The notes: generated by a model from the sequence alone, not told the origin. Positions 21,896-45,274 are shown, counted from the first letter of the stretch. The stretch is DNA of 64,000 nt from Candidatus Omnitrophota bacterium (GCA_023248155.1 JAHFFE010000001.1:314603-378602); one strand, 5' to 3'. A program made the numbers and translations.

Positions 21896-22459
21896 ATGGA
21901 AGAAACCGCCCCCGCTCCAGACGAAGCAATCTTGCTGCCCTCGTATTGGCTTGATGGCGCGCTGCCGTCTGAAGACGATATTGAGGATGGAACCTGGATC
22001 TGGGAACCGGACTATTTTCCGGAAGGAATTATACGCGTTCACTCGCACCCGTCCGGCAAAGGCGTTCACTTTCACGGCTTCCGCAACAGCCCGATCCATA
22101 TGGTGGGGCATCCGATGATTACGCAGGAGGTCTGGCTCGATCCGGCTGATCCGCCGCGCGGCATCATGGTGAAATTTGTCTTAACTTCGGGTGATGAGAT
22201 TGGCGTTTATTGGGAAGGGGAAGAAGAGGTTTTCTTTCCGCTGATCGAAAAAGAAGGCCCGATGGAAATCTGGTATTACGGAATGCTGCCGGAGCTGGGC
22301 AAATGGACGCCGCTGACGATTCTGGCCGAAGACCTGGCGTTGGAAGACCAGGATGTTGTCGGCTTGAAATTCGTCACCTATGACGGCCGCGCATTGTGGG
22401 GCCGCACCAGTGTTTCCGAAGCGCCCGCCCCAGAAGAAAACAATACACCTGTCTCGTAA
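21896..22459 (+). CDS. Hypothetical protein, probably secreted. The frame is open upstream to 21578 and encodes a signal-peptide-like segment but has no ATG/GTG/TTG there.
   Basis: Upstream in-frame translation KTFYLSVFFCVLALASTAGAEQ resembles a Sec signal peptide. It is followed by a diverged tandem repeat AVSETITHTP(T/M)EET x2 and a Trp/Tyr-rich C-terminal domain. Confidence 0.5.
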   Translation: MEETAPAPDEAILLPSYWLDGALPSEDDIEDGTWIWEPDYFPEGIIRVHSHPSGKGVHFHGFRNSPIHMVGHPMITQEVWLDPADPPRGIMVKFVLTSGDEIGVYWEGEEEVFFPLIEKEGPMEIWYYGMLPELGKWTPLTILAEDLALEDQDVVGLKFVTYDGRALWGRTSVSEAPAPEENNTPVS

Positions 22460-22637: not shown

Positions 22638-22721
22638 GTCATCCTGAGATAACAACGGCATGTCATCCTGAGAGTGTACTTGCTCAGGATCTAAAGATGC
22701 TGAACAGAAAATTTTCAGCAT
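22638..22721 (+). repeat. Double-hairpin element copy 2. A half-site GTCATCCTGAGAT (22638-22650) precedes hairpin 1 ATCCTGAG-N10-CTCAGGAT (22665-22690) and hairpin 2 ATGCTGAA-N9-TTCAGCAT (22697-22721).
   Basis: Hairpin 1 is 27/30 identical to 4367-4396. The 3' arm of hairpin 2 contains the ATG (22720) of giant gene 1. Confidence 0.55.
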
Positions 22722-25700: not shown

Positions 25701-26025
25701 CGGCGATATTGCGGAAGTTTCTGATCAGTGGTTGAATGGGGCAGGTTCTGAGTCCGATCTGGTTATTTTGAATAACCAGCTGGATGGCGTGGCCGCTATG
25801 CCAGGTTCCTGGCTTCCGGCGGTAGCTCCAAGGCCAGCCGCGGTCCGCATGAGCCCGGTAACCTCGACGGAGCTTTTTTCAGGCGACGCCATTCAGGTGG
25901 GCCGCAACTTGCGCGCTATGGCGGCGCTCTCTCTGGCAGTGCACGGAGTACCGGATATGGATATAAACGGAATTACCTTTGTTGATCTGGCCGGAAAAAC
26001 CTATGCGGTTATTACCTCTGCCTAA
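22720..26025 (+). CDS. Giant secreted protein, AG-x-EE motif family member 1 (1101 aa)
   Basis: Signal peptide. Six AG(A/Q)EE-type motifs. A GDILVD...ADLRLR module shared with member 2. A conserved C-terminal module ending DLAGKTYAVITSA. Confidence 0.8.
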   Translation: MTKNKSMRIKKYNQVSIATFLLISLVGTSSVPAVSLPIYTLRPLASAQNKSGAEELTNALKRQNDSNANQPLTNQAVLDKAQAGPLLSETKELADAAARAALGITAGQEEKIEQFTRDRILLRLNTGREIPTVPYKTGFLAGLAQAIADPGLSGTAESYLVQELPPGLRDVVQTTADLIGRNRFTKMDMKVAQTDTGSPLTGIAGETIMEILYNAFSRGFGVGLPLSDKGYTAIVVSGTPGSDLSVVSIPEIGPDFQDSQFARSLANHVVDQQPTVLGVDRRAKYTLYEIGTGNTDYALPKYLAGEQGRRGSYLLLQIDLPISFAGAEERGWFSRNKGFFGMVALSVAVLGFAAYQIAGDQIAEQYYLYRHPPTVKQAAVMPSGLHVQLPPEMAGKYAVAYLETDRFYPQVITQVSADGTAAFHVEVRPPNRPGWIAARGRVVAVVNSKQAANVAFREIKDPSALNRLNPAAVLTIDSDGKVTSDKDPLGNQNAGQEESVATAIDQLVSNSFGATNVITTEMLFNNSNGMVTFQNSSYYGDQTYELTLRPWVSLLSDHPEENVDFRVRVSLQRKDFAVLSAAERKAMASYEFRVKGFPSAEFQSGWTALSPNPQPKNYYDPGAGPNTPPGFVIPAGADMETWIPIPIVSDAFRGEKLAELQRRDPAQRSITIQVRKAGQEETVVVGRILTLQAAMEKLRTLLAGSNHKQIVFNPEQNESLIERTETASVKDVSDLTGPVRLIGQYSPNFDNGQGEGLVDIRTRNGIIYVNPFPYKAEELSLKVTQLFRRGDILVDQTTGVRHFEVADNQGNAVDAVPLVSIINGYTADSKVTRVPAADLRLRYRVIRAVAAGAEENVEELAARLGDEPIKVVETLPSSALLTADAKADVVRYLRGEIEEAELLGILDRLGIVEIQSGGNFMNQAELIRAAAKERALVERAIAEDRLGEFIPIADGKSAAVVEVDVVSSLPKVYLQNGLSSPVAAPDDIAIIPLSGDIAEVSDQWLNGAGSESDLVILNNQLDGVAAMPGSWLPAVAPRPAAVRMSPVTSTELFSGDAIQVGRNLRAMAALSLAVHGVPDMDINGITFVDLAGKTYAVITSA

Positions 26026-26065
26026 AATCAATCGTTAGTAGTAGAAAACTTCGCCGTTATTTTTA

Positions 26066-26096
26066 TTGACAAAAATAACAACCCCAGCGCTATAAT
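26066..26096 (+). promoter_or_regulatory. Sigma-70 promoter for giant gene 2
   Basis: TTGACA-19 nt-TATAAT. Followed about 25 nt later by CAGCGGTCTTTTTTT, which resembles a block downstream of the member 3 promoter. Confidence 0.55.
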
Positions 26097-26215
26097 GGCA
26101 AATAACCTTGAATTTCGCAGCGGTCTTTTTTTGTCCGTCATTTTTTACAGATTTAGATAAGATCTGAGACAGCTTTTATGAACCCATATAAAAACTCGGC
26201 CAGATAAAGGAAAAA

Positions 26216-29200
26216 GTGATGCGGACAAATTTAAACCAGTTCCTGGCCGCCCTGCTTCTCGTTGGTCTCTCTTTCGCGAATATTTCTCCCGTCCCTCAGC
26301 TGTTCATGGTGAGTTTATCGAACCATACTCTGCGTGCCGTTGGTTTAGAGGAAGGCACCCAAAAGAATTCTTTATCTGACGCTTTAAAAAATAATGCCTC
26401 CGGATTAGAGGAAGCGGTTGTTTTGGACGCGTCGGTTCCTTATCAATATCCCTGGCGGACTGCCGAATTCGACGAGCTTTGGCCAAATGCCGATGATCGT
26501 GATCCCAAGCTGGAACGCTTTCAAAGATTGTTCAACCAGGATTTGGACGGCCATCCGGAAGGGGAGATTCAGCTCACATCGCCCAACGGAAACCCCGATG
26601 AGTTGGCCCGCTGGATTGCTGAAAACAATATGACTCCGCAGCGGGTTGCCGAAAGCATTGAATGGATCCATAAGATGCACCCCTACGATAAGGAACGGTT
26701 TATCTCTCTTCAGCAGTTGCCCAGCATTCAGGCGTTTCTTGCCGCTCATCCGGAAGCCCGTTTCAATTTAATCGGCGTCCGCGAAGATGAGAGCAAGGTC
26801 GGTTCCTTCAAAATCGGCCAGTATATGGATGAATATCTGCAGAAGATCCTCAAAGCCGGCCATCGAGGAGATGTAAATTTCCCGGGCGCCGTGATGTACT
26901 CCTCGGGAAACGCCATTCAGGGAGATGTCGAGACATTGGCCTGGCTCAAAGAGCAGGGGTTGGTTCCGCAAGATTTCAAGATCACAATGGTGGCAATGGC
27001 TTACCTGAAACCCAAAAAGCGGAAAATGATCGAGGATTTTAAAAAGCGGGGATTGGTTGACCGAATTGTTACCCCCGAAGAAATTGCCGCCGAGTATCTT
27101 GCCGATTCAGAGGGGGGCAGCGTACCGGTTCAGCATCAGGACTTGGCGGTTGATCCCGTGGCGTTGGATGACATCAATCAGGTTTTGAAACTTTTGGATT
27201 GGTGGTCGGAGAAACAGGGCCGGGCCCATATTTACGCTTCCAACAGCTTAAGCGCCGTCGTGGGCGGGGCCAGAATCTACTACGATATTAATCGGGCATT
27301 TACGCAGGATCGTGAATACCTGCAAGCGTTGTTGGGGGATGCCGCCGAAACTTTGCCGGCTCAGCCCGATGGTATTGTCATGCCTGCCGCGGGCGGCGGA
27401 CCGTTCGGGGGAATACCGTTTTGGGCGCGCCAGCTTGGGCATGCCACCAAAACCATCGGACCGATCCCCACCATCCGGACCGGCAGCATCGCGGAAGGTC
27501 TGGGCATTCAGATGATTCAGGAACTCGCGCGCAATCTGGCCCGTTTATTGGGAGTAAATCAGATGCAGCTTACCGAGGTATCTGAGCGGGCTATTCTAAA
27601 AGCGTTTGTGGAACTGCATGACGCCGGAATTGAAGTGGAGCCCAGCTCTGCCATCGCCTACGCGCAGGTGCTGTACCTGATGGAAAACAAACCTGAATTT
27701 TTCTCTCAATTTTTGGCTGAGAACGGCCGGCCGATGACGCTGGTGGCCATATTAACCGGGCGCAATTTTGAACCATCGGATGCCGCCTGGGCTTGGGCGA
27801 AGGTTCAAGAGCTTCGCCTGAAGGAGCCCCATGCCCTCAGAGCCGATCCAACCCAAAGGCAGGCGGCCGTTCCTCCGGCGAATGGGCTGCAGCAGGTTGT
27901 CGTTTTGAGTTCAGGCACCGAGCAGGCAATGGGCAGAGCGCTGCGCCAGGCGGTAATCGATTGGCGCGCGTCCCAGCCGGCAAATCTGAAACCAACCGTA
28001 ACGGCTGTCTACAATCCTCCCAAAGATCTGGATTGGCTTAAAAAGATAAAACCGGATGTCATTCTTGTGGCGGCTACTGCCGAAGAAGCCCAGCAGGATG
28101 GTTTACTAAGGAATGCCATCACAGTTCTTGGCGATGCCGGCGTTCTCATTCGTTATGTTCCTTTCCCCAGCAAGGTAGCAAGATCTTTGAATCCGCTGGC
28201 AAAATCTCTGCCAGGGAAGCTTCTAAAAATCGGCGAGCTGTTTCAGGGAGGGGATATTTTGGTGGATTCGACAACCTCCAAGCCCCGTTTTCGGGTAGTT
28301 GCCGACCAAGCAAACACCATCAGCGCTGTTTCTCTCCAACCAATTGATGAGCAGGGCAATTCCGCGGGGCCGGAAACCGCTGTCCCCGTCGCGGATCTAC
28401 GCCTGCGTTTTCAAGTGGTTCGCGCCGGCTTAGAGGAGCAATTGCTCACCGTTACGGTTCCTCCAAGCCAGCCGGTTTGGCTCACGGCGGCAGATGGAAT
28501 CCAATTGCTGGAACGGTTGCTGCAAGAAGGGGAGTCCCGCTCGATTTACTCTGTTAAGCACGGGGCTGATTTTCTTGTGCCTCGTTACAGAGCGGTAGTT
28601 TCAAAAGAGGGAGGTGTCATTAAAGTCCGAACAGTCGGTAAATTTTCGATGTCACTTGAGTTCGTCATGACGCGCGTCGAGGGTTATTTTATCGTGAAGC
28701 CGGATGGAAACATCTTCGTTATTGATGCCGAAGATGGAAACCAGAGAGCGAATATTTATTTGCGCAAGAATTTTTCGACTATTTCCGTTGATTCTCTCGC
28801 GCCTGCCGCTGTCGAGGGCTGGGTTCAGCGACCTTCCGCGGAAGAAGCGGCGGCCTATATCCGGGAGCTTGTTCCACAAGGCGTTTCTGCTGTTCAAATG
28901 GGAGACGCTGAACATTCTCCGGAATCTGACCGTTTGGTTGATGATCTCACTCAGTTTCAGGGGGGAGCTGGCAGCGGCCGGATTTTCTATTTGAGAAGGT
29001 CCAACCAAAATGTAGAGGTGTTGGCGATCACTGCGATGGATTTTGACGCCAGATCCATTGGGGAGTTCCATCAATTGCCGATGGGTGAGTTGTTGAAGAA
29101 GATCGCTCAGCTGGGAGCGAACTGGTTCGTCCAGGTCGGTTTTTCGAATTCGGCAGCGCGGGTATATGCGACAGACACCTCTGGTTTGCAGAGACTTTTG

Positions 29201-31267
29201 CGTGGATATCCCAATACGACGGGTTTCTACGCCCTGTCCCTTCGCGCAAATCAGACTGCTTTCGTGAGCAACAGCTCGAATCCCAATTCTTCCGGATTGG
29301 AGGAAGATTTTCGAGATGCTTTCTCGGATGGGATGGCCGCTCAGCATTATTTGGACCAATTGGCGGGTTTTGCCGATATTGTTTTATTGAATCAAACCCA
29401 AGAGGCTTTGGGTAGAGTCGACGCCCATTCAAGGGATTATCTGGATCCGAAGGGAATTTATCCTTCCACCAGAGAAATTATTCCCAAGTACGCTCAAGCC
29501 AATCCTGTCGAATTAGACAGTGCTCATCGCGAACGGTTGAAAGAATTTCTTTTTTCGGTTTGGGAGAACGAGCGCCGTATGCGGAACGAACCGCAAGGTT
29601 CTGCTCGAACAGGCAGGCCAGTGGTTGATGTGGAGTCAGCCATGCTTCCTGAACTCATAGAGCAGGGACGTGCTGCTCAGCGGCTGGCGTTGTCTGGCGG
29701 GCTGGAAGAGCGGGTGAATCTTTTGGTTATTCGGGATTCTAATGACGCGGCAACCAAACAAGCGCTGCTAGGTATCGTTCCTGGCTGGGCTAAAACAAAA
29801 GCTTCGCAGGAAATCGATGTGGTTTCTTACGGCACCCTGGATAAGGGGCTTGCCGCCTCGCCTAAGAAAGGCCGATGGAGCGGGATCCTGATGTTGCGGC
29901 ATGTTGCGACTGAAGCCGATGTCGATGAGATTGAGCGCCAGATTACCGGCCTTAAGCCCGTTTCGGATTCTGCGGCGATACCGGTTGCGCTGATCGTCTA
30001 CGCGTCGGACCAAAAAGTATACGAAAAACGGTTGCTGGGTTCGCTGCAACTCCTCAAAGGAAGCCAGGGTATCGTCACATTTTTTGTTCATCGTTTATGG
30101 CAAGACAAACCTGCTTCTCAGCCCGCCGTCGCGGATTCACCGGAACCCACAGCGAAACCGGCAGTGCCGCCGGCAGGAGTCTTCACGGGAGTTCTGGATC
30201 AATTGCTGGACTCCGCGGCTAAGTACGCTGTGGCTGTCGGTCTGGAAGAGCGGGGAGCGCTGCTTCCCGATGTTTTCTTTCGGCGTCCAGGGTTCCAGTT
30301 CCTTATGGAAATGGGAAGAGCAAAAATCCTGCCGGCGGATTTCGATGTCCGGGATAAATCTCTTCAGGTTCGAATCGGCCGGATCGTAGGCCGCTGGGGG
30401 TTCAGCCGTTGGCTGGAAGAACTCCCGCTGGCAAAGGTTCTTGAGAATAGCCCCAATGGGCACAATGACCTGGCCGCGGTGGAAGCGTTTATTGCAAGGG
30501 CACAAAATATTCCGCCGGATTATTTTGGGATAGCGGCAGGAACCACCCAGTGGTCGCCCAAGAAGACGCCTTCTTGGCCGGCGGTTCAGCCATTAGTGAT
30601 CGAGGCGGTAGCGGGTGCTCGTCAAAATAAAAATTTCGAATTACAGTACACCCCTGCTGCGGTAAGCGAATCGGATGTGACTGATCAAAGCGACGGTAAA
30701 ACCTACCATCATGTTGAAATAGTTTCGCCTCCGAAAATTCAGCTTCTTCCTGCCGCCGGGCTGGAGGAATGGACCGTTTCCGATCTGTTCTTGCGCGAAG
30801 TGGTTACCACGCACAATTTTTACACGCGATTTGCGCAAGAAGACGGTTCCCAGCTGATTGTGGTGCCGATGGGACAGAATAAAGTTAAGCCGGCGAATCT
30901 TTATTTGCAGGAGGGGCTTGAGAATCCCATTTCGCGCCTGGTTCCAAACCCTGTTCGTCTGGGAAGAGAAAAGGAGGACGTTCGGGGGCTCTTCCGCCAA
31001 AACCCCGCGGGTCCCAACGATGTCATTGTTCTCAACTCCGATATAGTGAGGGGTGATCCGTTGTCCTGGTTTTCAGCGGGCGGCGCGAATACTCAATATA
31101 AGGTGCGTATTTCACCGGCGTTAGCCATGAAATTCAACAATGATCTGGATACCCGATTCATGGAAGTGGTCGCGTTGGCCGCGCGGGTGGGTAATGGAAT
31201 GTTATTGCTGGACTACACGTATCAGGCGGTGGATGACCAGGTGTACTTGATCCTGCGCTCCGCGTAA
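26216..31267 (+). CDS. Giant secreted protein, AG-x-EE motif family member 2 (1683 aa). The N-terminal domain resembles a fold-type-II PLP enzyme.
   Basis: Seven GLEE motifs. A GSFKIG lysine motif, an AAGGGPFGG glycine loop and GIEVEPSSAIAYA recall threonine synthase/TrpB-family enzymes. The C-terminus ends YLILRSA. Confidence 0.8.
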   Translation: MMRTNLNQFLAALLLVGLSFANISPVPQLFMVSLSNHTLRAVGLEEGTQKNSLSDALKNNASGLEEAVVLDASVPYQYPWRTAEFDELWPNADDRDPKLERFQRLFNQDLDGHPEGEIQLTSPNGNPDELARWIAENNMTPQRVAESIEWIHKMHPYDKERFISLQQLPSIQAFLAAHPEARFNLIGVREDESKVGSFKIGQYMDEYLQKILKAGHRGDVNFPGAVMYSSGNAIQGDVETLAWLKEQGLVPQDFKITMVAMAYLKPKKRKMIEDFKKRGLVDRIVTPEEIAAEYLADSEGGSVPVQHQDLAVDPVALDDINQVLKLLDWWSEKQGRAHIYASNSLSAVVGGARIYYDINRAFTQDREYLQALLGDAAETLPAQPDGIVMPAAGGGPFGGIPFWARQLGHATKTIGPIPTIRTGSIAEGLGIQMIQELARNLARLLGVNQMQLTEVSERAILKAFVELHDAGIEVEPSSAIAYAQVLYLMENKPEFFSQFLAENGRPMTLVAILTGRNFEPSDAAWAWAKVQELRLKEPHALRADPTQRQAAVPPANGLQQVVVLSSGTEQAMGRALRQAVIDWRASQPANLKPTVTAVYNPPKDLDWLKKIKPDVILVAATAEEAQQDGLLRNAITVLGDAGVLIRYVPFPSKVARSLNPLAKSLPGKLLKIGELFQGGDILVDSTTSKPRFRVVADQANTISAVSLQPIDEQGNSAGPETAVPVADLRLRFQVVRAGLEEQLLTVTVPPSQPVWLTAADGIQLLERLLQEGESRSIYSVKHGADFLVPRYRAVVSKEGGVIKVRTVGKFSMSLEFVMTRVEGYFIVKPDGNIFVIDAEDGNQRANIYLRKNFSTISVDSLAPAAVEGWVQRPSAEEAAAYIRELVPQGVSAVQMGDAEHSPESDRLVDDLTQFQGGAGSGRIFYLRRSNQNVEVLAITAMDFDARSIGEFHQLPMGELLKKIAQLGANWFVQVGFSNSAARVYATDTSGLQRLLRGYPNTTGFYALSLRANQTAFVSNSSNPNSSGLEEDFRDAFSDGMAAQHYLDQLAGFADIVLLNQTQEALGRVDAHSRDYLDPKGIYPSTREIIPKYAQANPVELDSAHRERLKEFLFSVWENERRMRNEPQGSARTGRPVVDVESAMLPELIEQGRAAQRLALSGGLEERVNLLVIRDSNDAATKQALLGIVPGWAKTKASQEIDVVSYGTLDKGLAASPKKGRWSGILMLRHVATEADVDEIERQITGLKPVSDSAAIPVALIVYASDQKVYEKRLLGSLQLLKGSQGIVTFFVHRLWQDKPASQPAVADSPEPTAKPAVPPAGVFTGVLDQLLDSAAKYAVAVGLEERGALLPDVFFRRPGFQFLMEMGRAKILPADFDVRDKSLQVRIGRIVGRWGFSRWLEELPLAKVLENSPNGHNDLAAVEAFIARAQNIPPDYFGIAAGTTQWSPKKTPSWPAVQPLVIEAVAGARQNKNFELQYTPAAVSESDVTDQSDGKTYHHVEIVSPPKIQLLPAAGLEEWTVSDLFLREVVTTHNFYTRFAQEDGSQLIVVPMGQNKVKPANLYLQEGLENPISRLVPNPVRLGREKEDVRGLFRQNPAGPNDVIVLNSDIVRGDPLSWFSAGGANTQYKVRISPALAMKFNNDLDTRFMEVVALAARVGNGMLLLDYTYQAVDDQVYLILRSA

Positions 31268-31313
31268 AGGCCCATTGAAAATGTTAGTCGTAGAAAGTTT
31301 CATGATTTAAATG

Positions 31314-31343
31314 TTGACATTTTTGCACTTTCTCAGGTATAAT
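31314..31343 (+). promoter_or_regulatory. Sigma-70 promoter for giant genes 3-5
   Basis: TTGACA-18 nt-TATAAT. A weak hairpin plus GGCTCTTTTTT lies about 35 nt downstream. Confidence 0.6.
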
Positions 31344-31453
31344 TTTCACAATACGCTGGTTTTGTCTTCCAAGCCAGCGGCTCTTTTTTACCCTGCATTT
31401 TTACTTATTTTGGATAACTTAAACAAAGCAAACATTCGGGAGGAATACAAGTA

Positions 31454-34400
31454 ATGCGATTTGATTTCCTGCGCTCAATCTCGGTGGTAGTCCTGTCTGT
31501 TTTTTCTCTGTCGTCTGTTTCTCCTGCATTTGCTCTGCGTGCCGCCGGCTTAGAGGAAAACGCGGAAAAGGGTACGGTCACCAGGAGGCTTCTTGAGGGC
31601 AACCGCGGAAATTTTTCGGGCGGTCTGCAGAAAAACTCCACCTCCGGTCTGGAAGAGATCCGGATCCTGCTGGTGGCGGTTTCTGACGAAGCTCTCGCTA
31701 AAAAAATGGGAGAGATGGCACAGGCCTGGCGTTCGGAGTTGGACGTAAGAATTGTTCACACTGCAGACGAGGCTCAGGTTTATCTGAAAGCGCAGCAAAA
31801 TCCAAGGCCGGATGCGGTCATCTGGGAATTATCCACAATGGGAACCGAGACGCTCATAGATCCAAGCCAGCTTTCTTTCAATGTACCCGTGGCTCTGGTA
31901 GGCGAGGGGGCGATGGGCGTGGTTGGAGAATGGATCGCATTGTTCAACAACCGTCCCGTTCCTGCCCCTTTTCAGGAGACTCTTCAACAAAAAGCCAAGA
32001 AGGATGGGTTTTCGAGAACTGCTCGCTTGTTATTTGGTGATGATCTAGTAAACAGGCGGCCCCTGCGGCTCCTGAGGGGAACTGAAAATTATGAGTTATC
32101 TGCTTTCACGCATAATCTGGACATACTGAATAGGGATTTCAGGAGCCGTTCCGCTGGGCTGGAGGAGGCGTGGGATCGCGACACCGCGGACAGTTGGACG
32201 ATTTTAAGTGGTACAGTTTCCACCCAACTTATCCAGCAGTTGCTTCAACAAACTCCCGCGCCGGCAATCACCGATCTGGGCAATTTTTACTGGACCAAGG
32301 GAACGCTTTCACAATTGACTCCCGGCATGGTGAATAACATTTTGAATGTTGCACCGTCGCGTCACCTATTGGCAATCTCGAATGGACAGGTTGCCTTGAT
32401 TCGTCAGGGAGAATTGGAATCGGCCGACCAGGACGGTGCGAAAGATGCAACCAATTGGTATGGGAAATTGGCGACACGCGCCGAGACAGTGCTGACTCCT
32501 CAGCATTTACAATCCGCCGGCTTGGAGGAAACGCCCGCGCAAGTCATCGCCAAGCAAAAAGCGATGGCAGTCATTGCAGTTCCCAGTGTTCAAGTTGCTG
32601 CCGGTATCGGTGCAGTGGTTGCGTACAAGGGAATAATTCCCGAAATTACATTTCGGGGGAATGAAGCCGATGTTTTGCAGGCGATCAATGCACTTTTCGG
32701 TCTGTCGTCGAGCAAGCGAATGCCGGTAGCGGCCGGATCTGTATTGACGGCCGATCAGGTGGAGAAAGCTGTACGGGCGGGTGCTAAGATTATCGTCAGC
32801 CCCGGCTTGATTGATGAAGTTATTCTCAAGGCCCAGGAATTGGGAGTTTTGGTAATCCCAGGCGTGGCATCGATGTCTGAGGCAAAAACAGCGGTCGAGG
32901 TTTACGGCCTTTCACTGTTGAAATTTTTCCCATTCTCTTTTGTCGATCAGGCTGATTTTATCAAATCAATCAAAGCGCCATTGCCGCCAAATCTTCAGGC
33001 CGTGGTGGACGCTAAGGTAACATGGGGAGATTCCGGAGAAGTCGCCACATTTACAAAAATTCTTGAATTTGTCCTGAGTAATCCGACAGCATCAAAGCAA
33101 TTCCAGCTTCCCAAGAAAAAAGGATTGGAAGCGCTTCATCAATTGGGCGTGAATCCGGCAGTTGCCAATGCGCAGTTTATTCCAACCGGTGGTATTACGC
33201 CGGAGATGATCCCGCAGTTGATAGGGAAGGAAAAGATCGTCGCGGTAGGTTTATCCATCGGCGGAGATAATCCGGCGGTTCTTGCGAAAGCCGATGCTAT
33301 TGCGAAAGCGGTTGCGCAGATTGCTGGTGCCGAGGAGGGAGTGGTTGCCGTTGTTGCATCGGAAGATAATTTTCAGGCAGTCGCTGGTTATGTGCGTAAG
33401 TATGCGATTGGGCAGGGCAGAAAAGCCCCTCAAATGGTTCACCAGCATTTTGATGATGCTCGGCAGAATGCCAGTCGCGGTTTTGTGACTGCCATCGTGG
33501 CGATTTTTCCAAGCGCGGATGCTGATCAAATTGCGTGGATCGAAAGAACCAAAGAACTTGCTCCTAACGTTCCAATCGCCGTGATTTATTCCGGCAATGG
33601 AAACGAGGTTCGCCGCGTCTCAACTAAAGCACTGAGCAGTAGAGAGTTGAGCCAAGATGCGGTTGGTGAAATGGTTTTCTCCCTGCTTCCCACCGCTGGT
33701 GCGGAAGAATCAACCGTGCTTCTTCCAACCCCGCAAAACTCGTTTCCTGCAAGTCGAGGAGCTGTCTCTCCGGACGGGGATTCACTATTAGCGTTGAAAG
33801 AGACACCGGAGGTTCGCTGGGCAACGATGGTGGGCCGTACGGAAGGGTTTTCTTCGGGGCGATCTTCCGACGGTTTGGTTCACGCGCAGGGATTGGTGGA
33901 TCGTCTGGAGATCAAAGCCGGATTTACAACTGGCATTGAAAATGAACTGAATATTGTCGAATCGTATCGAGCTGGGCAATATACGCTGGCGATTCTCGGA
34001 GCACCCGTTGCTACAAGCGCTAGGCCGATTATCCAAGGTTTTAAGTATGAGGTTACAGGTGCTCCTGGGGTTAATCGCGTACTGACACTTTCCGTTGATC
34101 AAAACGCTGTTTCCCCTAAGGTAATAAATAATCTTGTCGCTCAAAATTTACCATCAGGCAGCCCAAAACCGTTGACGGTTGTTATCGAAGCCGCCGCTGG
34201 TCTCGAAGAGACGGTTTACACGGGCATTGACCAGGTTGTAGCGGCGATTACTCAACCTGAAGGCGAAGACAGCATCCGGGCTCTTGTCTACTCTCTTCCG
34301 GATGGAACAGAACAACGCGCGGTTCTTGCCCCAGGTGAATGGACTCCTGCGCAGGCGGTTCCCGGTGCTTTTCAAGCAATGGAACTCCGTCCTGTTTCCG

Positions 34401-37225: not shown

Positions 37226-37241
37226 CAGAACGGAGAGAAAA

Positions 37242-40200
37242 ATGCGGTTTAATTATCTGCGAACAATTTCGGCAATCGTTCTGACTGCTTTTTCTCTGTC
37301 AGCGGCTACGCCTATGCCTGCGTGGGCTTTGCGCGCCACTGGCGCCGAGGAAAGCGCCACCCAGCCTATTTTGGCTCGCGCGCTTCAATCCGGCAATAAA
37401 GGTAATTTTGTCCGCGGAGTTGATTCCCGCTTAGTTGCCGCTGGTCAGGAAGAGAATGTTCATGTGCTGGGTATTGAGGGCAAGCCGACCAATTCCCGCG
37501 AGGGTCTGACCGCTTATGACAACCAGCCCGATTTGCAAACGGCGGTCCGTGCTTACGTGCAGGCCTCGTCCGTTCTGGTGACGATTACGTCCATTCAGCA
37601 GAGAGATGGAACAACGGATGAGTTTCTTGGAAAACCGTTTGTTTTTGAAACCTATCGTTTTGCGCCAGGAAAAGATCCTCTCGACCCTAAAGATGGCAAT
37701 TGGGGCGGCATGACCTGGCAACTGCGCCGTTTTTCTATTCGATTAAACGGACTTAGTCGGGTGGGCAGCCCTCTTCCGAATATGTCACACACGCTGAATC
37801 GGTTTCGCTTAATTGAAACATCGCCGGGACAACTTGTCATCGAACCAGTTTTTGACGCGGCGCTTGCGCCGCGATTGAAGACCCTTTTGCCCGATGTGGC
37901 TTTAGAGACGATTCAGGGTTGGTTATCAAAGGGCCAATACGCGCAGATCCTTTCTTTAGCTGAGAGTGGTGCTAACGAGAGAACAGATACTCGGAATCTG
38001 ACGCAAATCCGGAATATGCTCAATGCCATGCTGGATGTTTCTTCCGCCGCTGGGGCCGAAGAGAGATTTGAGGTTTCTGTCCGCAGTACGAGTGATGGCA
38101 CTGAAAACTTCGATCGAATCGAGCTTATGTCCAGGAGCGAAGAAACAGATCGGTTAGCGAATGCACTGGGCTTGATTAAAGGGCGTTCCTTGCTTTTGAT
38201 ACGCCAAAAGGCGCCGACTACCGCCACGGAGGCATTTCCCTTTTTTGCCGTGTCCGATGGGGCAAAGGTGATTCTTTTGTCCGGGGCTGGATCCGATGGC
38301 GCGCAGCTTTGGCGTTCCTATGCGGAAGAAAAAATAAAACGAAGCATAGTTTTTTCATCTATGCGGTCATTTCGTACTTTAGAAAGCCCCGTTAATGTTC
38401 AAATTAGTTCTCCCCTGAGTATTCCTCAATATGATCTATTGCAGGTAACGATCTCTGCTGGGCAGGAAGAAAAGTGGTCGAATCCGTTTATGGGTCCAAA
38501 CCGCGTCAATTTAATGTCTGGCGATTACGCGGCAAAATGGATTTCGCAAGGCGTCTTGGCTGCGAAAATTGCTTCTGTCGCGGTTCATCCGAAAGAGGGT
38601 TCTCCCGTTACGCTTTCGCTGAATCAAGTCAACACAGCTCGAAAATTGCTTCGCCAATTTAAACGCGACGATTGGGTTAATGTGTCCTGGGCAGAAAACG
38701 GTTCCGCTCGGGGAGAAATTCGTGTTGATGTCCGGCCCGTTGATGTTTTGTCCGATGGGATGCCTGTTCCGCCCGTTGGCGAATTTACCAGCGTAATCGG
38801 TTATCTGACCATTACGACGACCCCTTACACCGCGGCCAGGGCCATAGCAGCATCCGCGGCAGAGATTGCTTCCGTTGAAACTCTAATTTCTTTTACGAGT
38901 GACCCCGGCTATTGGAGCGGTTATGGCCACGCAAGCACCGATTGGAACGCCGTGGCTGAACAGCATGCCAAGGTCTATGTGGCTGCCGGCCTGGCTTCAA
39001 TAAATCCGGCTATTTTATCGGCCAAAGTTCAGTTTCTGGCGAATCTCGAACCGCTATTTCTCGCTGGGCAGGAGGAAACTTATTTCTATTCTCCTGCTGG
39101 GGCTACGCTCAAGTCCAACGATCAGACGCAGCCCGATCTTCCTATCGCTGTTGGGGATGTCTTCCGAATTTATCTGGCTCAGAAGCGAGTCAAACCCGAT
39201 GATCGCAGCGACGAGACTTATCTGCTTCGGCTCATGGAGAACGGGCAGCTTGCTCTAATGGAACGGCCGCCAGCCGGCAGAACATTCAGTGAAATGACCG
39301 AAAACGAAGACCAATTTGTTCAGTTGGCCATCGGCTGGGATCAGGCACATCAGCGGGGTGAGCGGGTGACCATAAATACCCTGTATGGACCCGTGAGCAT
39401 TTCACTGAACGCGGGAAAAACCCAACTTGCCTTCGAGCATGCTTTCCGAGAGGAAAATATAGAGGAACGCATTGGCTCTAAAGTAAATATTTATCCTAGC
39501 TCTCTCTACGACCTCGGCTTCAATCGCCTTATTCCAGCTGTTGGGTTGCCCGCCGTCAGGGATTTTAAAGCCGCTTATCGCCGTTTCTATAAGAATCAGC
39601 AAAACGGAGACGCCGCCGCGCGGTTAGAAGCGGCCCGCGTAGCTTTAGTGGTGCTGGCCAATACGGAAGATCAGACACGGTTTCGTGCGGCCTATGCCTC
39701 TTTTGAAAAGGCTCTTTTGAATGAGCTGCAAACGGCTCCTTACACTCTTGTCAAGGGCGTTCCGGGTTTCGATAAACCGATTTTTGCAATAGATTATGTG
39801 AGTCACACCCAGCGTCAGCTCGTCGATGAACTCACCGCGATTCGATCCCTTTCAAATGCCGCCGGGGCGGAGGAAACTTACCGCAACTACGATTCCAGCG
39901 GTTGGCATGTCACATTACCCGCAGGGCAAGCCGTCGCGCAGCCGGTTACGGTGGCTACTAATCCGGGAGATATTCTGCTTCTGCAGTGGGCGCCCCAAAT
40001 TCCGAATCAGGAAAATAGGCTGTTCGCGCTGGTTCGGGTTTCTGATGATGGAAAAGAAATTTCCGTCTTGGATCAGCTCGATTCGCAATTCAGATTGAGT
40101 AGTTTTTATCGGGCGGGTGTTCAGGGTATGACTGGAGCAGAAGTGCCTGGCGATGTTATCCGGAGCGTGGAGTGGGGACCGGCCGCTTCGGAGGCGAGAA

Positions 40201-42056
40201 TTTCTGAGGCTGGAATTTCTTTTCAGAGCAATCCCAATAATTCGTTGAGTGTTACCCTGTCGTCGAATAATTATTTAGTTGTTTCCCGTCTCCAGCCGGC
40301 CGCCGGCGCTGAGGAGAAACTGATACTTTCCCGTTCCGAACTGCTGGATCGTGTGGAGGCTTTAGCTCAGATACAACATACGGGAGGCGGGTATGCCATC
40401 GGCCGGGTGGGGTATCTTCGTGCTGGAGAGGTAGTGCCGATCGAGGTATCCCGGGCAGGCATAGACCAAGGGGAAATTCCGGGAATTATTCCTGCAATGA
40501 CGAATCGATTAATTGCTCGGATCGAATCGCTGCGAGATGGCCGACACGCTTTGCAAATTCAGAGTTCATCAAATGGCGGCCAATTTGCAGTAACTCCGCA
40601 CGGGCTTCAGGTTCAGAAATTTTGGGAGTTACAGCAGATTCACGCCGGATACCCGTTGGAATATTTATCAGATCCTTCCATATTACAGGGTAACAACAAG
40701 GTTGCCGTCACGCGCAATGGCCGCCCGGTTAATTTTGCCGATTATGAGCGGCTTCAGGATCAATTGGTGGGGGCGCCGGGACAAGCATTGCCAATGACCC
40801 TGCTGATCACCGCCCAAGGGGTTGAATTGGTTCCCGCTTATCTTGTTTCGAGTGGCCAGCCGGCAAAGGTTCAAGGTCTTTTTGAACTTGAGGTGGCCCC
40901 GGAATTTACAGCGCCTCCTTCAGGACAATTTCCCCTTATTAATGAAACCGTTTTTGTAGAGCGTTTAGCAGAGGTTCCGAATAATCCTTTTGATTTGGCG
41001 CTTGGGTTCGCTCCGGAAGCCCCCGTTCGTTTATTCCGCCTGCTGGATTCGCCGTTCTCTGTGGCAACGGATGGCAATCGTGTTGTTTATTTCTCCCCGG
41101 ATGCCGAGCCATTGGCGAGGGCCGTGGCGAAGGCGGGAAATATCTCGACAGTTCTCTCCGCGTCGAAAGATCTTAAATTGCGAATCAGAATTGAAACGCC
41201 TGATCAAACCCAATCGGGTGATAAGTTACTGGTATCGGTTCAAGAAGCTCGTGCCGGTGCGGAGGAAAACTGGAATAATCTGGCGCCGAATGAAAAACAT
41301 CCGGTTTTTGTCGGCCAGGCCGTGCAATGGATTTCCGCGGCGGGTGAGTCAGGGAAAGTGGCCGGCATCCGCGTGGGCAATGACCCAAGCCAGGAAGCCG
41401 TTCTGTTGGCGAATCAATTTTCTAACCCGATTGCGCTGGAGCGTCAGTTTAATTCGGTCGCGATGCAGGGGAGCGTTGGCTTGTTGTGGCGCCCTGCGGC
41501 GGGAACCGCTGTCGGCTCTGGAATGATCGCGCTGGAAATTTCTTCTCCGGAAGCCGGCGCCGAGGAAGGCGTCACGCGCCTTTCTGCGGAGGAATTGGTT
41601 GGCCGGGCAATGCTTTCGGATGAAGAGGGTGTCGTCCAGTTCTCTTCCGGAGACTTGGTTATTCCGATCAGCACTAATTTGCCGACTACCGGAACGCTGT
41701 ATCATCAGCCGGGGCTGGCACTGCCGAATATCGACGGATTGAATCAGGTTGTTATTGCCGGCAGCGCGGTCGATGTTCAGAAAATCTGGGATCAAACGCC
41801 TCCGATACCGGGTGATTTGGTCATGCTCAACAACGATACCGTTGGCGACGGGTACAAAGACTTTCTGCCGACTGTGTTGGTAGAGGGCGCTCTCTTTTTG
41901 CGTGTTAGTGCCGCAGCGTCGGCCAAGCTGACACCGGAACTGCTGGCCGGTATCCTTGCGGTTTCTCAGCAGCTAGTAGGGCAGGTACTGTTGATTAATG
42001 ATCTGGAATATGTCACCGTAGAAAATCAGACCTACGCGGTTCTGCGCTCGGCCTAA
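37242..42056 (+). CDS. Giant secreted protein, AG-x-EE motif family member 4 (1604 aa)
   Basis: The N-terminus is paralogous to member 3 (MRF..LR.IS..VL..FSLS...ALRA.G.EE...GN.GNF). Nine AG(A/Q)EE motifs. The C-terminus ends QTYAVLRSA. Confidence 0.8.
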   Translation: MRFNYLRTISAIVLTAFSLSAATPMPAWALRATGAEESATQPILARALQSGNKGNFVRGVDSRLVAAGQEENVHVLGIEGKPTNSREGLTAYDNQPDLQTAVRAYVQASSVLVTITSIQQRDGTTDEFLGKPFVFETYRFAPGKDPLDPKDGNWGGMTWQLRRFSIRLNGLSRVGSPLPNMSHTLNRFRLIETSPGQLVIEPVFDAALAPRLKTLLPDVALETIQGWLSKGQYAQILSLAESGANERTDTRNLTQIRNMLNAMLDVSSAAGAEERFEVSVRSTSDGTENFDRIELMSRSEETDRLANALGLIKGRSLLLIRQKAPTTATEAFPFFAVSDGAKVILLSGAGSDGAQLWRSYAEEKIKRSIVFSSMRSFRTLESPVNVQISSPLSIPQYDLLQVTISAGQEEKWSNPFMGPNRVNLMSGDYAAKWISQGVLAAKIASVAVHPKEGSPVTLSLNQVNTARKLLRQFKRDDWVNVSWAENGSARGEIRVDVRPVDVLSDGMPVPPVGEFTSVIGYLTITTTPYTAARAIAASAAEIASVETLISFTSDPGYWSGYGHASTDWNAVAEQHAKVYVAAGLASINPAILSAKVQFLANLEPLFLAGQEETYFYSPAGATLKSNDQTQPDLPIAVGDVFRIYLAQKRVKPDDRSDETYLLRLMENGQLALMERPPAGRTFSEMTENEDQFVQLAIGWDQAHQRGERVTINTLYGPVSISLNAGKTQLAFEHAFREENIEERIGSKVNIYPSSLYDLGFNRLIPAVGLPAVRDFKAAYRRFYKNQQNGDAAARLEAARVALVVLANTEDQTRFRAAYASFEKALLNELQTAPYTLVKGVPGFDKPIFAIDYVSHTQRQLVDELTAIRSLSNAAGAEETYRNYDSSGWHVTLPAGQAVAQPVTVATNPGDILLLQWAPQIPNQENRLFALVRVSDDGKEISVLDQLDSQFRLSSFYRAGVQGMTGAEVPGDVIRSVEWGPAASEARISEAGISFQSNPNNSLSVTLSSNNYLVVSRLQPAAGAEEKLILSRSELLDRVEALAQIQHTGGGYAIGRVGYLRAGEVVPIEVSRAGIDQGEIPGIIPAMTNRLIARIESLRDGRHALQIQSSSNGGQFAVTPHGLQVQKFWELQQIHAGYPLEYLSDPSILQGNNKVAVTRNGRPVNFADYERLQDQLVGAPGQALPMTLLITAQGVELVPAYLVSSGQPAKVQGLFELEVAPEFTAPPSGQFPLINETVFVERLAEVPNNPFDLALGFAPEAPVRLFRLLDSPFSVATDGNRVVYFSPDAEPLARAVAKAGNISTVLSASKDLKLRIRIETPDQTQSGDKLLVSVQEARAGAEENWNNLAPNEKHPVFVGQAVQWISAAGESGKVAGIRVGNDPSQEAVLLANQFSNPIALERQFNSVAMQGSVGLLWRPAAGTAVGSGMIALEISSPEAGAEEGVTRLSAEELVGRAMLSDEEGVVQFSSGDLVIPISTNLPTTGTLYHQPGLALPNIDGLNQVVIAGSAVDVQKIWDQTPPIPGDLVMLNNDTVGDGYKDFLPTVLVEGALFLRVSAAASAKLTPELLAGILAVSQQLVGQVLLINDLEYVTVENQTYAVLRSA

Positions 42057-42060
42057 AACT

Positions 42061-45000
42061 ATGAAAAAAACAGACTGGTTTAAAATAAGCGGTTTTCTGG
42101 GGCTGGCGCTGCTGCTGGCTGTTCCCGCGCCCGTATACGCTCTGCGCGGGGCGGGTGCCGAAGAAAGCTTGGAAAAAACGGATTTAACGCGGGCACTCTC
42201 CCGAGCGGGCAACCGCGGTTACTTGAAGCGTGCCGCCGGATTGGAGGAAACACCCTGGACAATCATCGGCCGGGGAGAGGGCACGCCGGTGGCGATGGCG
42301 CTGGATGATTCCGGTGACGCGCTGGTTCTGTCCCGGATCGCGGCCGGCGAACTGCGGCTTCAAAGAATAAGCCCGGCTGGAAAAGCAGAACCCATAACGC
42401 CGGTTCCGTCTTTGGCGGTTCCAATGCCGCCGGGTTCCGGCGGAGATCCGGCCAATCCGTCCGCTGCTTCTGTTTTCGCCATTCTTCCGTTCCGCGATCA
42501 GGTTCTTGTTACCGATGGCGGCCAGCAATTTTATCCGATAGAGATTTCATCCTTAGGGCAAACGGTTCCCGACCTCCAATCGGCGGCTAAGCCGGTTCCG
42601 CTGGCTAACGTAAGCCGGATCGATCAAATGATTGTCCGGCCTTCCGACGGAATGCTGATTATCGTGGATAAGCAGGGAGACGATGCCGCTTCAAAATCCA
42701 ATTCCATTGTTCGGTTATTTGATGTAAAGCAAATGCCGCCTGTTGTTAGAGAAGCCGTTGGGGTGGGAGAACCCGTCGTGACTGCACCGGCAGTAGCCAG
42801 AAACCGTCTTTACCTGGCCCAATCATTCCCGTTGAGCCCCGCTGCGGCAGTGCCGGCGGGTACCGGGACGCAGACTCAGCGAGAAATTCGCATCCGCGGG
42901 TTTAACATCTCTAACGGCGGGGATGGGAGCGTCGAAACGCTGAGAATTCAGGGACCCAAAACCTTCGTTCGGTCGGATGTGGCCGGTTTGGCGGCTGGCT
43001 TAGTGGATGGAAAACCATTTTTGTTTTCGCTGGAGAGCCGCCAACGCAAGGGTCCAGGAGTTGAAGCCGCCCAGCCGCTTCGTCTGGCGGTTTATTCTCT
43101 CGAGAATCAGGCGCAGGTTGGTTTCTTTGATCTGCCGGCCAATGTTCGGCAGATTACTTACGATTCAAAGAACAGCCAGGTACTGTTGGCCGCGGGCGGC
43201 GCGCCCGAATCCAATTCTTATCAAATCACCGCGGCGCCCGTCGCACAACTCATCCCGGCCGTTCAGCAACGGCCTGTTTCTGGATCTGGTTTAGAGGAAG
43301 CCCCTCAGCCTCCACCCGCCCAGCGCACGCAAGGGATTCATTCTCGGCTTGCCCGGATCTTCATCGAAGGAGTGCTTGCCCGTTATACGCCTTCAGGCAA
43401 TGAGAATTCTGATTTCACCGTCAAATATTTCGGAGAAACAGAAGATGAATCCTTGCTGTTTAATCCGGAGCTTTTCCTTGGGGTTGTAAGAAAATCCCAG
43501 GTTTCGCACCATGTTTGGGTCAATGTAAATCCAGCCACAAAAATCATCGAGGTTCATCCCGTTCAAATCCGCGAAGAATTGAAAAAACCGGTGATTCTTC
43601 TGGATTCTCAAAATACAGTGAACTTTATTCTCAACGCGGCTCTTCCAGAGCCGGTTCTTGGGGTCGCCTATCGGGAAGCAGGGCATCTTCAGGTTTTATC
43701 GGGGGCCTTGTTGGGCAACGCGAGTTTGCTCCCCCGGATTCTTCAGATGGTTAACATCAGTCAAACTATTCTCTTTTTGAAGGAACCCTTTGAAATTCCT
43801 GCGAATTCAGACGCAGAACAGTCTGCCCAAAAAGGATTCTTGCTGCGGCTGGCTTATGTGCCATCTCAAAGGTCTTTGCGTGCGGTCGCGTGGAGAACCA
43901 TTGATCAGTTTGTGCAGGAGTTTTCCGGTTTTGCAAAGGCAGGCCAGGCATCGGTTCTTTATTATCATACGCCTGCCGGGGTTTATCTTCTGGAAGGACC
44001 GGAGAATCTGCAGAATGCCGACTTTCTTCGTGCCGCGGCCGAACAGGTGGCCAGCGGTTCCTACGTGCTTGCCTCAAAGGAGGGCGCTGACGGAAAAGAA
44101 TTTCATTTGTACGCGCCTGAGTTTGCAGGTTTGGAGGAAACGGCCGTAGCAGAAAACGCATTGCCCTCAATATCCAGCCGTCCGGTTATTTCCTCGCCAT
44201 CCGGATTCTCGACGACAGTAGCTGGGCCTGTTTTTCCCGCTTATTCGGCGGTGATCTCCGCGGCAGGCAATGGTCCTTCCGCGTCAGCGAATTCCGTTTC
44301 TTCTTTGGCGGTTTCCGTGAGCAGTCCTCTGAATGCTCCGGCGGTTATTGAGCCGGTTACCGGCGAGCGGGCACCGGAACCGGTGGTTTTCTCGACGGTG
44401 GAAGAGGTGATTGCTTATTTGAACGCTTTGCCGGATGATCAGCCGGTTATTGTGGGCGGTGTCGAGATTCCTTCGCTAAGAGACACTCTTTTTCCGGTGA
44501 AATTAGACGAACTGGCCCGCAACAATCCGGGCCAGAATTTCTTAATCCGGCCCGCCGGCCCCGGCGCCGTTTTGCGCGTTGACCTGCAGGCGCCGGTCCG
44601 CACGCTCAGCGCGACGGAATTGTTTGGTGATACTACCGCAGTTTCGGTCCGATTTGACCTGGCCGAAGCTTCCGATGCCATGATTGCCGCGCAAATCGCC
44701 CAGGCCAATAAGCTGGGCCAGCCGGTACAGATTTCCCGTTCCGGCGAGTTTGCGGCTGTCTTTGAAAAAACTCCAACACTTTCGCCATCGGTCCTTTACA
44801 TACAAGATGATTTGGATCTGCCGCAAGATATGTCGGAATCCGATGGAACGGTTGATGTTCGCCGGATTCCGGCCGATCCCGAGCTGGCCCAGGAATTCTG
44901 GGAGCTGCAGCAGACCCTCTTACCCGGCTCCGTCGTGATTTTAAACAGCAACCTGCTGGCCAATCAGCGGCTCGATCCGCGCCAGTGGCTGCCCGCGAAT

Positions 45001-45177
45001 CTCGATCCGCAGATTCCGGTTTTAATCATGGGAGAAATGGCCGCGCAAAACTGGAATAAAGATTCGCTCGCTTACCTGGTGACGCTGGCTGCTCATTCCC
45101 GCGGAATTTTGTTTATCCGCCAGATTACTTATCCGACGGTAAACGAACGGGAGTTTGTCGCTATCCGGTTCGTCTAA
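42061..45177 (+). CDS. Giant secreted protein, AG-x-EE motif family member 5 (1038 aa)
   Basis: Signal peptide plus an ALRGAGAEE box. Four motifs. A FWELQQ module shared with member 4. The conserved C-terminal module begins VVILNSNLL. Confidence 0.8.
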   Translation: MKKTDWFKISGFLGLALLLAVPAPVYALRGAGAEESLEKTDLTRALSRAGNRGYLKRAAGLEETPWTIIGRGEGTPVAMALDDSGDALVLSRIAAGELRLQRISPAGKAEPITPVPSLAVPMPPGSGGDPANPSAASVFAILPFRDQVLVTDGGQQFYPIEISSLGQTVPDLQSAAKPVPLANVSRIDQMIVRPSDGMLIIVDKQGDDAASKSNSIVRLFDVKQMPPVVREAVGVGEPVVTAPAVARNRLYLAQSFPLSPAAAVPAGTGTQTQREIRIRGFNISNGGDGSVETLRIQGPKTFVRSDVAGLAAGLVDGKPFLFSLESRQRKGPGVEAAQPLRLAVYSLENQAQVGFFDLPANVRQITYDSKNSQVLLAAGGAPESNSYQITAAPVAQLIPAVQQRPVSGSGLEEAPQPPPAQRTQGIHSRLARIFIEGVLARYTPSGNENSDFTVKYFGETEDESLLFNPELFLGVVRKSQVSHHVWVNVNPATKIIEVHPVQIREELKKPVILLDSQNTVNFILNAALPEPVLGVAYREAGHLQVLSGALLGNASLLPRILQMVNISQTILFLKEPFEIPANSDAEQSAQKGFLLRLAYVPSQRSLRAVAWRTIDQFVQEFSGFAKAGQASVLYYHTPAGVYLLEGPENLQNADFLRAAAEQVASGSYVLASKEGADGKEFHLYAPEFAGLEETAVAENALPSISSRPVISSPSGFSTTVAGPVFPAYSAVISAAGNGPSASANSVSSLAVSVSSPLNAPAVIEPVTGERAPEPVVFSTVEEVIAYLNALPDDQPVIVGGVEIPSLRDTLFPVKLDELARNNPGQNFLIRPAGPGAVLRVDLQAPVRTLSATELFGDTTAVSVRFDLAEASDAMIAAQIAQANKLGQPVQISRSGEFAAVFEKTPTLSPSVLYIQDDLDLPQDMSESDGTVDVRRIPADPELAQEFWELQQTLLPGSVVILNSNLLANQRLDPRQWLPANLDPQIPVLIMGEMAAQNWNKDSLAYLVTLAAHSRGILFIRQITYPTVNEREFVAIRFV

Positions 45178-45274
45178 TCATCCTCGCAGTGGTTAATCAA
45201 AATATAGTCTTTGATATTCTGTATTGATTTTTAATAAGCTCATTGGGTATAGTTCGTATATAGACACAAAAACA

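Follow-up and report, generated by a model that had tools for sequence, protein, structure and literature searches.

The window analysed here, a stretch of 64,000 nucleotides from a Candidatus Omnitrophota bacterium (GCA_023248155.1, JAHFFE010000001.1:314603-378602), carries a cluster of six tandem genes for giant proteins, m1 to m6, which bear signal peptides and consist of cassettes separated by a short junction peptide, AGxEE. The Omnitrophota are abundant, uncultured bacteria of very small size, presumed to live in dependence on other cells or as their predators. The present analysis concerns the C-terminal domain, referred to here as the type-1 tail, that closes m1 to m5 and is a genuine, previously undescribed domain family. 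The genes and their tails are listed below, with positions counted from the first letter of the window, lengths in amino acids (aa) and expectation values (E) from a hidden Markov model (HMM). P-numbers denote external proteins of the family, and L081 to L093 denote related loci compared with the window.

22720–47677, + strand: giant cluster, six tandem genes (m1 to m6) for signal-peptide-bearing cassette proteins
22720–26025, + strand: m1 open reading frame (ORF), 1101 aa
25576–26022, + strand: type-1 domain of m1, aa 953–1101, ends TYAVITSA, HMM E 2e-29
26216–31267, + strand: m2 ORF, 1683 aa
30755–31264, + strand: terminal cassette of m2, from junction AAGLEE (Gly at aa 1515) to the stop
30833–31264, + strand: type-1 domain proper of m2, aa 1540–1683, ends VYLILRSA, HMM E 3e-19
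31454–37225, + strand: m3 ORF, 1923 aa
36812–37222, + strand: type-1 domain of m3, aa 1787–1923, variant end VLSVQA, HMM E 2e-17
37242–42056, + strand: m4 ORF, 1604 aa
41553–42053, + strand: terminal cassette of m4, from junction EAGAEE (Gly at aa 1439) to the stop
41655–42053, + strand: type-1 domain proper of m4, aa 1472–1604, ends TYAVLRSA, HMM E 2e-20
42061–45177, + strand: m5 ORF, 1038 aa
44740–45174, + strand: type-1 domain of m5, aa 894–1038, variant end FVAIRFV, HMM E 1e-14
45224–47677, + strand: m6 ORF, 817 aa
47165–47674, + strand: type-2 module of m6, aa 648–817, ends RLEALFTSA, not homologous to type 1

A terminal domain on five giant chains

The first-pass annotation of this DNA had proposed that m1 to m5 end in a related module. 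The strings that it quoted are all present in the translations (DLVILNNQLDG and TYAVITSA in m1, DVIVLNSDIV and VYLILRSA in m2, DLVLLNANTV in m3, DLVMLNNDTV and TYAVLRSA in m4, VVILNSNLL in m5 and FTSA in m6), and the relationship was examined with a profile built from 19 external sequences, 18 of which are no more than 34% identical to any copy in the window. This profile recovers m1 to m5 with the E values given in the list (for m5 with filters off), in every case over the last ~135–150 residues, while m6 reaches only 0.35; homology of the six C-termini thus holds for m1 to m5 and fails for m6. The m1 score is not fully independent, because an m1-type fragment (P0032) is among the 19 sequences. 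The m5 type aligns with the external alignment in hhalign at a probability of 98%. In direct BLASTP comparisons, m2 and m4 match with an E of 1e-9 over 178 aa, and the other pairs among m1 to m5 are collinear but weak.

The module is larger than the ~90 aa first suggested. The conserved unit measures ~140 aa, or ~165 aa with the stretch back to the last AGxEE junction included, and it starts not at the DLVxLN motif but ~50 aa upstream, with a conserved (L)YLQxGLxxP block. The conserved blocks are, in order, a β-strand with (L)YLQxGLxxP, a helix with a conserved Trp, D(L/V)(I/V)x(L/F/W)N, W(L/I)P, (L/V)R(M/I)(S/T)P, an Ala-rich helix, and a terminal β-hairpin ending in TYA(I/V)(I/V)RSA. Only the Asn of the third block is invariant. 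The last junction of m2 and m4 lies ~165 aa from the end, ahead of the tail unit; in most relatives a short conserved helix (xxLVERAIAxDQLG) stands between the junction and the tail domain.

A search of 1.84 billion representative proteins with the profile of the five tails returned 32 matches, of which 31 are true relatives; the remaining one, P0034, is an FG-GAP repeat protein and was discarded. In all 31 relatives the tail stands at the extreme C-terminus, at most 2 residues from the end of the protein, although the host proteins range in length from 95 to 3907 aa. The only candidates for internal copies were non-significant secondary HMM alignments, which were rejected, and within the window the domain is confined to m1 to m5. 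Three further searches were negative: m3 found no relatives among the GTDB representative genomes, alignments of the m1 type and the P0019 type found none in JGI metagenome contigs, and a search with the whole of m4 matched only itself.

The five window copies are mutually 20–30% identical, and several have closer counterparts in other lineages, which makes them old paralogues, each on a different chain. The tails closest to that of m1 are those of P0011, P0012 and P0017 (53–60% identity), the m3 sub-type also occurs in P0009, P0013 and P0024, and the m5 orthologue P0007 is 89% identical in the tail against 79% over the rest of the protein.

Two AlphaFold2 runs, each made from a shallow alignment (5 and 26 sequences), converge on an α/β arrangement of the order β-β-β-α-β-α-β-α-α followed by a β-hairpin, with predicted local confidence (pLDDT) values of 85.4 and 86.9 and a predicted TM-score (pTM) of 0.81. 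According to these models, the tail of m1 to m5 would be a globular α/β domain of ~140 aa. Foldseek searches of the PDB and BFVD gave nothing below an E of 0.1, the best resemblances being to flavodoxin-like enzyme domains (asparaginase, dehydroquinase) with non-significant TM-scores of 0.4–0.47. A sequence-profile search of the PDB with the tail found nothing, and Pfam and NCBIfam gave no consistent match even at permissive thresholds. The first-pass annotation, which did not recognise the module, was right in this respect. No transmembrane segment was found in the domain by a hydropathy scan; the sole segment flagged in any tail (m4, aa 1567–1585) corresponds to helix 4 and strand 6 of the model and was rejected as a membrane anchor.

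The extreme C-terminus deserves separate attention. Among 29 non-redundant members, the last residue is Ala in 26 and Val in 3, the penultimate one Ser in 20 and Ala in 5, and the third from last Arg in 20 and Thr in 4. The final 8 columns are the best-conserved block of that width in the alignment (2.80 bits against a mean of 1.80), and all 29 members stop at the same column, with zero extension beyond it. The shared terminal tripeptide noted earlier for three of the giants is therefore real and locked in position, but it is a feature of the whole family rather than of those three proteins.

The case of m6 is different. It does end in FTSA, yet its last 170 aa constitute a second conserved tail, type 2, which matches the tail of the L081 ORF at 12285–17435 with an E of 2e-13 in phmmer. 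Type-2 tails close the last giant gene in L081 (12285–17435, ending QSA), L083 (19348–27099, KSA), L087 (13812–23450, EAA) and L093 (19799–23050, TSA), and the gene carrying one is always downstream of the type-1 gene or genes. A third tail is found at the beginning of the window:

61–3105: ORF open to the window start, similar to glycogen synthase (GT5/GT1), with its tail at 2653–3102

This ORF contains a single junction, QAGAEES, at aa 865, followed by a tail of ~145 aa that ends in LQSA, and it may represent a seventh member of the family, at a distance of 20 kb from the giants. Of the 31 non-giant genes of the window, no other ends in SA (0/30). Homology between the type-1, type-2 and ORF 61–3105 tails was considered and rejected, the hhalign probability being at most 0.2%. 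That three unrelated tails nevertheless end in -SA supports the view that the terminus has a significance of its own.

Junctions, cassettes and the chromosomal setting

All six N-termini pass from basic through hydrophobic to small residues, which gives them the look of a Sec-type signal peptide, and continue with L-R-x-x-G-(L/A)-E-E; the same succession opens every family member. The junction motif, (A/S)-G-(L/A/Q)-E-E, then recurs along the chains. The six proteins contain 36 instances of G(L/A/Q)EE, 31 of them preceded by Ala or Ser, where shuffling predicts ~0.02 per protein and the other genes of the window have one in 10,373 aa. It is placed directly after the signal peptide, again ~30 aa further on, and then between units of 100–1000 aa (example Gly codons at 31547, 32519, 37341 and 41556), so that a recurrent junction delimits independent units, as in a polyprotein. 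Over 148 junctions, the residue before the Gly is Ala in 60% and Ser in 24%, and the one before that is Ala, Ser or Thr in 59%. Since synonymous codons vary freely, the motif appears to be selected as a peptide; a DNA-level signal, a Shine-Dalgarno read-through and a recoding artefact were rejected on the same ground and because no start codons follow.

Two of the enzyme cassettes in the window are well delimited:

32519–33340, + strand: 2-keto-3-deoxy-6-phosphogluconate/2-keto-4-hydroxyglutarate (KDPG/KHG) aldolase cassette of m3, aa 356–629, after the junction at aa 356
45863–46960, + strand: ROK-type kinase cassette of m6, aa 214–579, full length

The aldolase cassette keeps the EITFR, GAGxxL, LKFFP (with the Schiff-base Lys) and PTGG signatures, and the ROK cassette is a paralogue of the stand-alone ROK gene at 48107–49273 (24% identity, E 1e-10). 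In addition, m3 has a transaldolase-like region and m2 a region resembling pyridoxal-phosphate enzymes. In relatives, the cassettes include transketolase, transaldolase, formate-tetrahydrofolate ligase (FTHFS), GlpX and class V fructose-1,6-bisphosphatases (FBPases), glucose-6-phosphate isomerase (GPI), malate synthase, PfkB, 2-hydroxyacid dehydrogenase, HAD, receiver and WD40 domains. The KDPG aldolase, ROK and FTHFS cassettes begin a few residues past a junction motif. Judged by their sequences, many cassettes are probably complete and apparently intact enzymes of central metabolism, and the presence of such enzymes on exported chains is unexpected.

Some cassettes have a Tat-like (twin-arginine, RRxFLK) or transmembrane-like segment of their own right after the junction, as in m1 (aa 326–357, 23695–23790, with the transmembrane part at 339–357), P0019 (~55–90), P0024 (~350–385) and P0027 (~695–720), which suggests that these were once separate genes. 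As with the ROK cassette of m6 and the ROK gene beside it, cassettes of other lineages look similar to housekeeping genes in their vicinity (2-hydroxyacid dehydrogenase, aminotransferase, PfkB), and these resemblances hint at recruitment by local duplication.

Comparisons between loci show that cassettes are exchanged as units. The ends of BLAST high-scoring segment pairs (HSPs) between orthologues fall on junctions; for instance, the HSP that m2 shares with P0010 begins immediately past the junction, at aa 1519. P0019 and P0022 have two cassettes in exchanged positions, and m2 and P0010 differ by the transposition of one. The leader and the tail persist through such changes. Both are kept between m3 and P0009, where the tail is 86% identical and residues 300–900 only ~20%, and between P0019 and P0022, where the tail is 64% identical and preceded by ~900 unrelated residues. 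In the sister locus L093 (3307–9827), the 1683-aa m2 has two genes as its counterpart, namely a tail-less, PALP-containing one of 1222 aa and P0010, of 942 aa, with the tail; the comparison points to a gene fusion or fission at a junction.

The number of type-1 genes varies, with five in the window, three in L093 and one per locus in other lineages, followed by the type-2 gene. Among the Omnitrophota-specific chain proteins, a subset has the tail, and there it is without exception the last cassette.

The cluster has a G+C content of 0.49–0.55, compared with 0.55–0.59 in both flanks of the region 22000–47700. The upstream flank is housekeeping (kdsA, kdsD, lptC/A/B, tig, clpP, serA, purA and a gene for an H+-pyrophosphatase), and the downstream one comprises genes for a ROK kinase, a peptidoglycan-binding (PG-binding) protein and an OmpA-family protein, followed by uppS, cdsA, dxr, rseP, ispG and infB. 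The closest CTP synthases are from Candidatus Omnitrophota metagenome-assembled genomes (64–69% identity). Three features next to the cluster are of interest here:

21896–22459, + strand: small ORF, 187 aa, no known domain, directly upstream of the giants
49386–49904, + strand: PG_binding_1 protein, Pfam E 2e-18
49918–50646, + strand: OmpA-family protein, Pfam E 7e-21

The order tig, clpP, serA, purA, H+-pyrophosphatase gene, small ORF, giants, PG_binding_1, OmpA, uppS, cdsA is common to the window, L081, L083/84 and L087/88. Its upstream half is also found in L089–L092, and the contigs of those other loci end before the downstream side. The cassette content of the giants is wholly different between these otherwise syntenic loci, which makes the cluster a hypervariable island whose place in the chromosome is fixed. 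Some type-1 tails are encoded away from the syntenic locus: the gene for P0011 is flanked by lysA and dapF, and that for P0023 is adjacent to a GGDEF gene.

The small ORF lies between the H+-pyrophosphatase gene and the giants in 8/8 loci examined. Its homologues at the same position in L081, L083 and L087 match with an E of 1e-45 to 1e-48, and others are present in L089–L092. The core of the protein reads ...VYWEGEEEVF...WYYGMLPELGKW..., the family comprises 56 homologue clusters, every source-named one of which is from Omnitrophica/Omnitrophota, and Pfam and the PDB gave no match. It is a candidate partner of the giants. The PG_binding_1 and OmpA pair bounds the cluster on the downstream side, as it also follows the giants in L081, L083 and L087, and the two proteins are possible envelope anchors.

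Possible roles of the tail

The reading that we favour, tentatively and at somewhat less than an even chance, is that the type-1 tail serves as the constant end piece, for localisation or retention, of a chassis by which the chains are exported and retained. It is favoured because the leader and the tail persist while the cargo between them changes. The chain would first be exported by Sec; its folded tail would then tether the cassettes to other chains or to a component of the envelope, and the invariant free -(R)-(S/A)-A-COOH end would belong to the surface that is recognised. The end of the tail resembles the residues that precede the internal junctions (..S/A-A|G-L-E-E), and cutting of the junctions at Ala|Gly, if it occurs, would for this reason leave every released cassette with the same kind of C-terminus.

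The suggestion of a sorting, anchoring or secretion signal, made in the first-pass annotation, survives in part. The constant terminal position, the diversity of the cargo, the retention together with the leader and the locked end all speak for it, and the Sec-type leaders and the conserved envelope-related surroundings of the cluster add to the case for our reading. A number of observations weigh against it and against our reading alike. The tail is predicted to be a folded α/β domain without a transmembrane segment rather than a short signal, and it matches none of the known sorting signals examined. L081, L082, L083 and L087 together have four to seven family proteins with a readable stop codon (one to three per locus), and in each locus only one of these has the type-1 tail, which was undetected at E≤1e-3 in the remaining ones; it is therefore not a universal cargo tag. 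Neither a partner or receptor nor a dedicated sorting enzyme was found next to the tail-bearing genes, and the window genes include no locus-specific protease, ClpP and RseP belonging to the ordinary flanking housekeeping blocks. The predicted fold includes the last strand, which could thus be conserved for structural reasons alone. Furthermore, Sec export of cofactor-dependent enzymes of a cytoplasmic type is odd, the topology of chains whose cassettes have Tat-like or transmembrane starts is uncertain, and junction cleavage is putative. The export and localisation of the giants are themselves features that we infer from their sequences.

The likeliest alternative, though still an unlikely one, is that the tail is one more cargo cassette, enzymatic or ligand-binding, that stands last only through a need for a free C-terminus or through history and has no sorting role. 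Like other cassettes it is delimited by a junction, and one tail protein per related locus is what a single-copy function would give. It also has many conserved polar residues (Y, Q, D, the invariant N, W, R, T, Y, R, S) in a pattern reminiscent of binding or active sites at strand ends, and the non-significant likeness to the asparaginase and dehydroquinase domains would fit such a role. However, the other cassettes move freely whereas the tail is never internal (31/31), it is retained with the leader when the cargo is swapped, and five anciently diverged copies on different chains would be unusual for an ordinary enzyme.

We have also considered a maturation protease, acting in cis or in trans, that would cut the AGxEE junctions, the -SA-COOH end mimicking the product in the active site. 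There is a precedent for such an arrangement in the alphavirus capsid protease, whose own C-terminus occupies its active site. The dipeptide at the C-terminus agrees with what precedes the junction Gly, one copy per related cluster would be enough for a trans-acting enzyme, and Procaspase-7 is among the weak, non-significant Foldseek matches (probability 0.18). Against this, the alignment offers no conserved Ser/His/Asp, Cys/His or Ser/Lys set and no conserved Cys, His or Lys column at all, the only invariant residue is one Asn, and the penultimate Ser is replaced in 9/29 members. Pfam and NCBIfam give no peptidase match at E up to 10, and no protease fold is matched significantly. With the cleavage itself putative, such a protease seems quite improbable.

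A bolder proposal combines cleavage and localisation. The chains would be cut at Ala|Gly at every AGxEE, and the resulting -(S/A)-A-COOH ends, together with the type-1 tail, would form a targeting code that sends sugar-phosphate and one-carbon (C1) enzymes (KDPG aldolase, transaldolase, transketolase, FBPase, GPI, malate synthase, FTHFS) away from the cytoplasm, either to a specialised compartment of the envelope or into an attached host cell. We give this only a slim chance and offer it as speculation; if true, host-dependent nanobacteria would have their own equivalent of glycosome-type enzyme targeting or of MARTX-type multi-effector delivery.

Comparison with known systems

That the tail is a diverged version of a known signal is very improbable, even though it is C-terminal on signal-peptide-bearing multi-domain proteins and has several paralogues. 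The closest parallel is the C-terminal domain (CTD) of type IX secretion system (T9SS) substrates, likewise a folded domain of ~70–140 aa at the extreme C-terminus of Sec-signal proteins, with diverse passengers and several paralogues per genome. The T9SS CTD profiles (TIGR04183, TIGR04131, Por_Secre_tail), however, match neither the six proteins (E≤0.1) nor the isolated tails (E≤10) nor 26 tails of the family (E≤1). The predicted α/β fold with four helices, for which Foldseek finds no significant match in the PDB, is not the Ig-like β-sandwich of that domain, the T9SS hosts are Bacteroidota rather than Omnitrophota, and the tail is absent from some family proteins. No T9SS genes are present within the window, and no PorU/PorV-type partner was seen.

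The other signals examined fare no better. The end ...RSA lacks both the terminal transmembrane helix and the basic tail of the PEP-CTERM, LPXTG and GlyGly-CTERM architectures. A terminal residue that is Ala or Val in all 29 members, and never aromatic, does not agree with an outer-membrane protein (OMP) β-signal, and a 140-aa α/β domain is not an autotransporter barrel of at least 250 aa; no autotransporter match was found in the six proteins with Pfam. Export by a type I secretion system (T1SS) as for repeats-in-toxin (RTX) proteins is at odds with the Sec-type signals of all six, in which neither an RTX nor a HemolysinCabind match was found. The weakest explanation, that the similarity reflects chance or composition with no real module behind it, would fit the low identity of the five copies and the weakness of some pairwise searches, but has next to no probability in view of the E values of the independent profile, the 31 collinear and terminal relatives and the confident, reproducible structure prediction.

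Resemblances to systems of other kinds are also partial. Multifunctional-autoprocessing RTX (MARTX) toxins are secreted by T1SS without a Sec signal and have RtxA repeats, a C80 cysteine protease and toxin effectors. The giants share with them long chains with conserved ends, in which internal modules are exchanged and reordered at defined inter-module sites, but have a Sec-type leader, no repeats and cassettes that are enzymes of central metabolism; Pfam detects neither Peptidase_C80 nor RtxA repeats in the six proteins. Dockerins, which are duplicated Ca-binding segments of ~70 aa, similarly place a common C-terminal module on diverse enzymes, and the tail could in the same manner attach to a shared scaffold, but its predicted fold is different, Pfam gives no dockerin match, and no cohesin-like partner was identified. 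Since defining features of T9SS CTDs, MARTX toxins and dockerins were looked for and not found, the tail family is a member of none of the three.

For the junction, the nearest analogues are the GLEAS sequence of the cyanobactin precursor PatE, which is a protease site, and LexA and UmuD, which cleave themselves at an Ala|Gly bond. In the giants, too, a short conserved peptide marks every boundary, and the motif has an Ala-Gly bond and a G-L-E core, but the cassettes are whole folded proteins of 100–1300 aa rather than short peptides, and neither an S8 nor an S24/S26 peptidase was found in the locus. For the terminus, an analogy, and only that, can be drawn with the peroxisomal targeting signal PTS1 (SKL-COOH), which is eukaryotic and acts post-translationally from the cytosol to an organelle. 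Both are strictly terminal tripeptides associated with enzymes of sugar phosphates, but RSA is a different sequence and is embedded in a folded domain that is itself conserved.

In the searchable literature we found no description of the tail, the junction motif, the family, Omnitrophota polyproteins or a secreted transketolase or transaldolase. A 2026 preprint on Omnitrophota giant proteins deals with unrelated proteins of 80,000 aa or more. Read most conservatively, the tail is still a new domain family, clearly defined by an HMM and with partners that can be tested. We know of no bacterial precedent for signal-peptide-bearing enzyme chains with a junction peptide and tail domains. Should the tail and its invariant -RSA end prove to be a localisation device, the giants would represent a new protein-targeting system and a new way of packaging enzymes as cassette polyproteins, with a portable junction-plus-tail toolkit of possible biotechnological interest.

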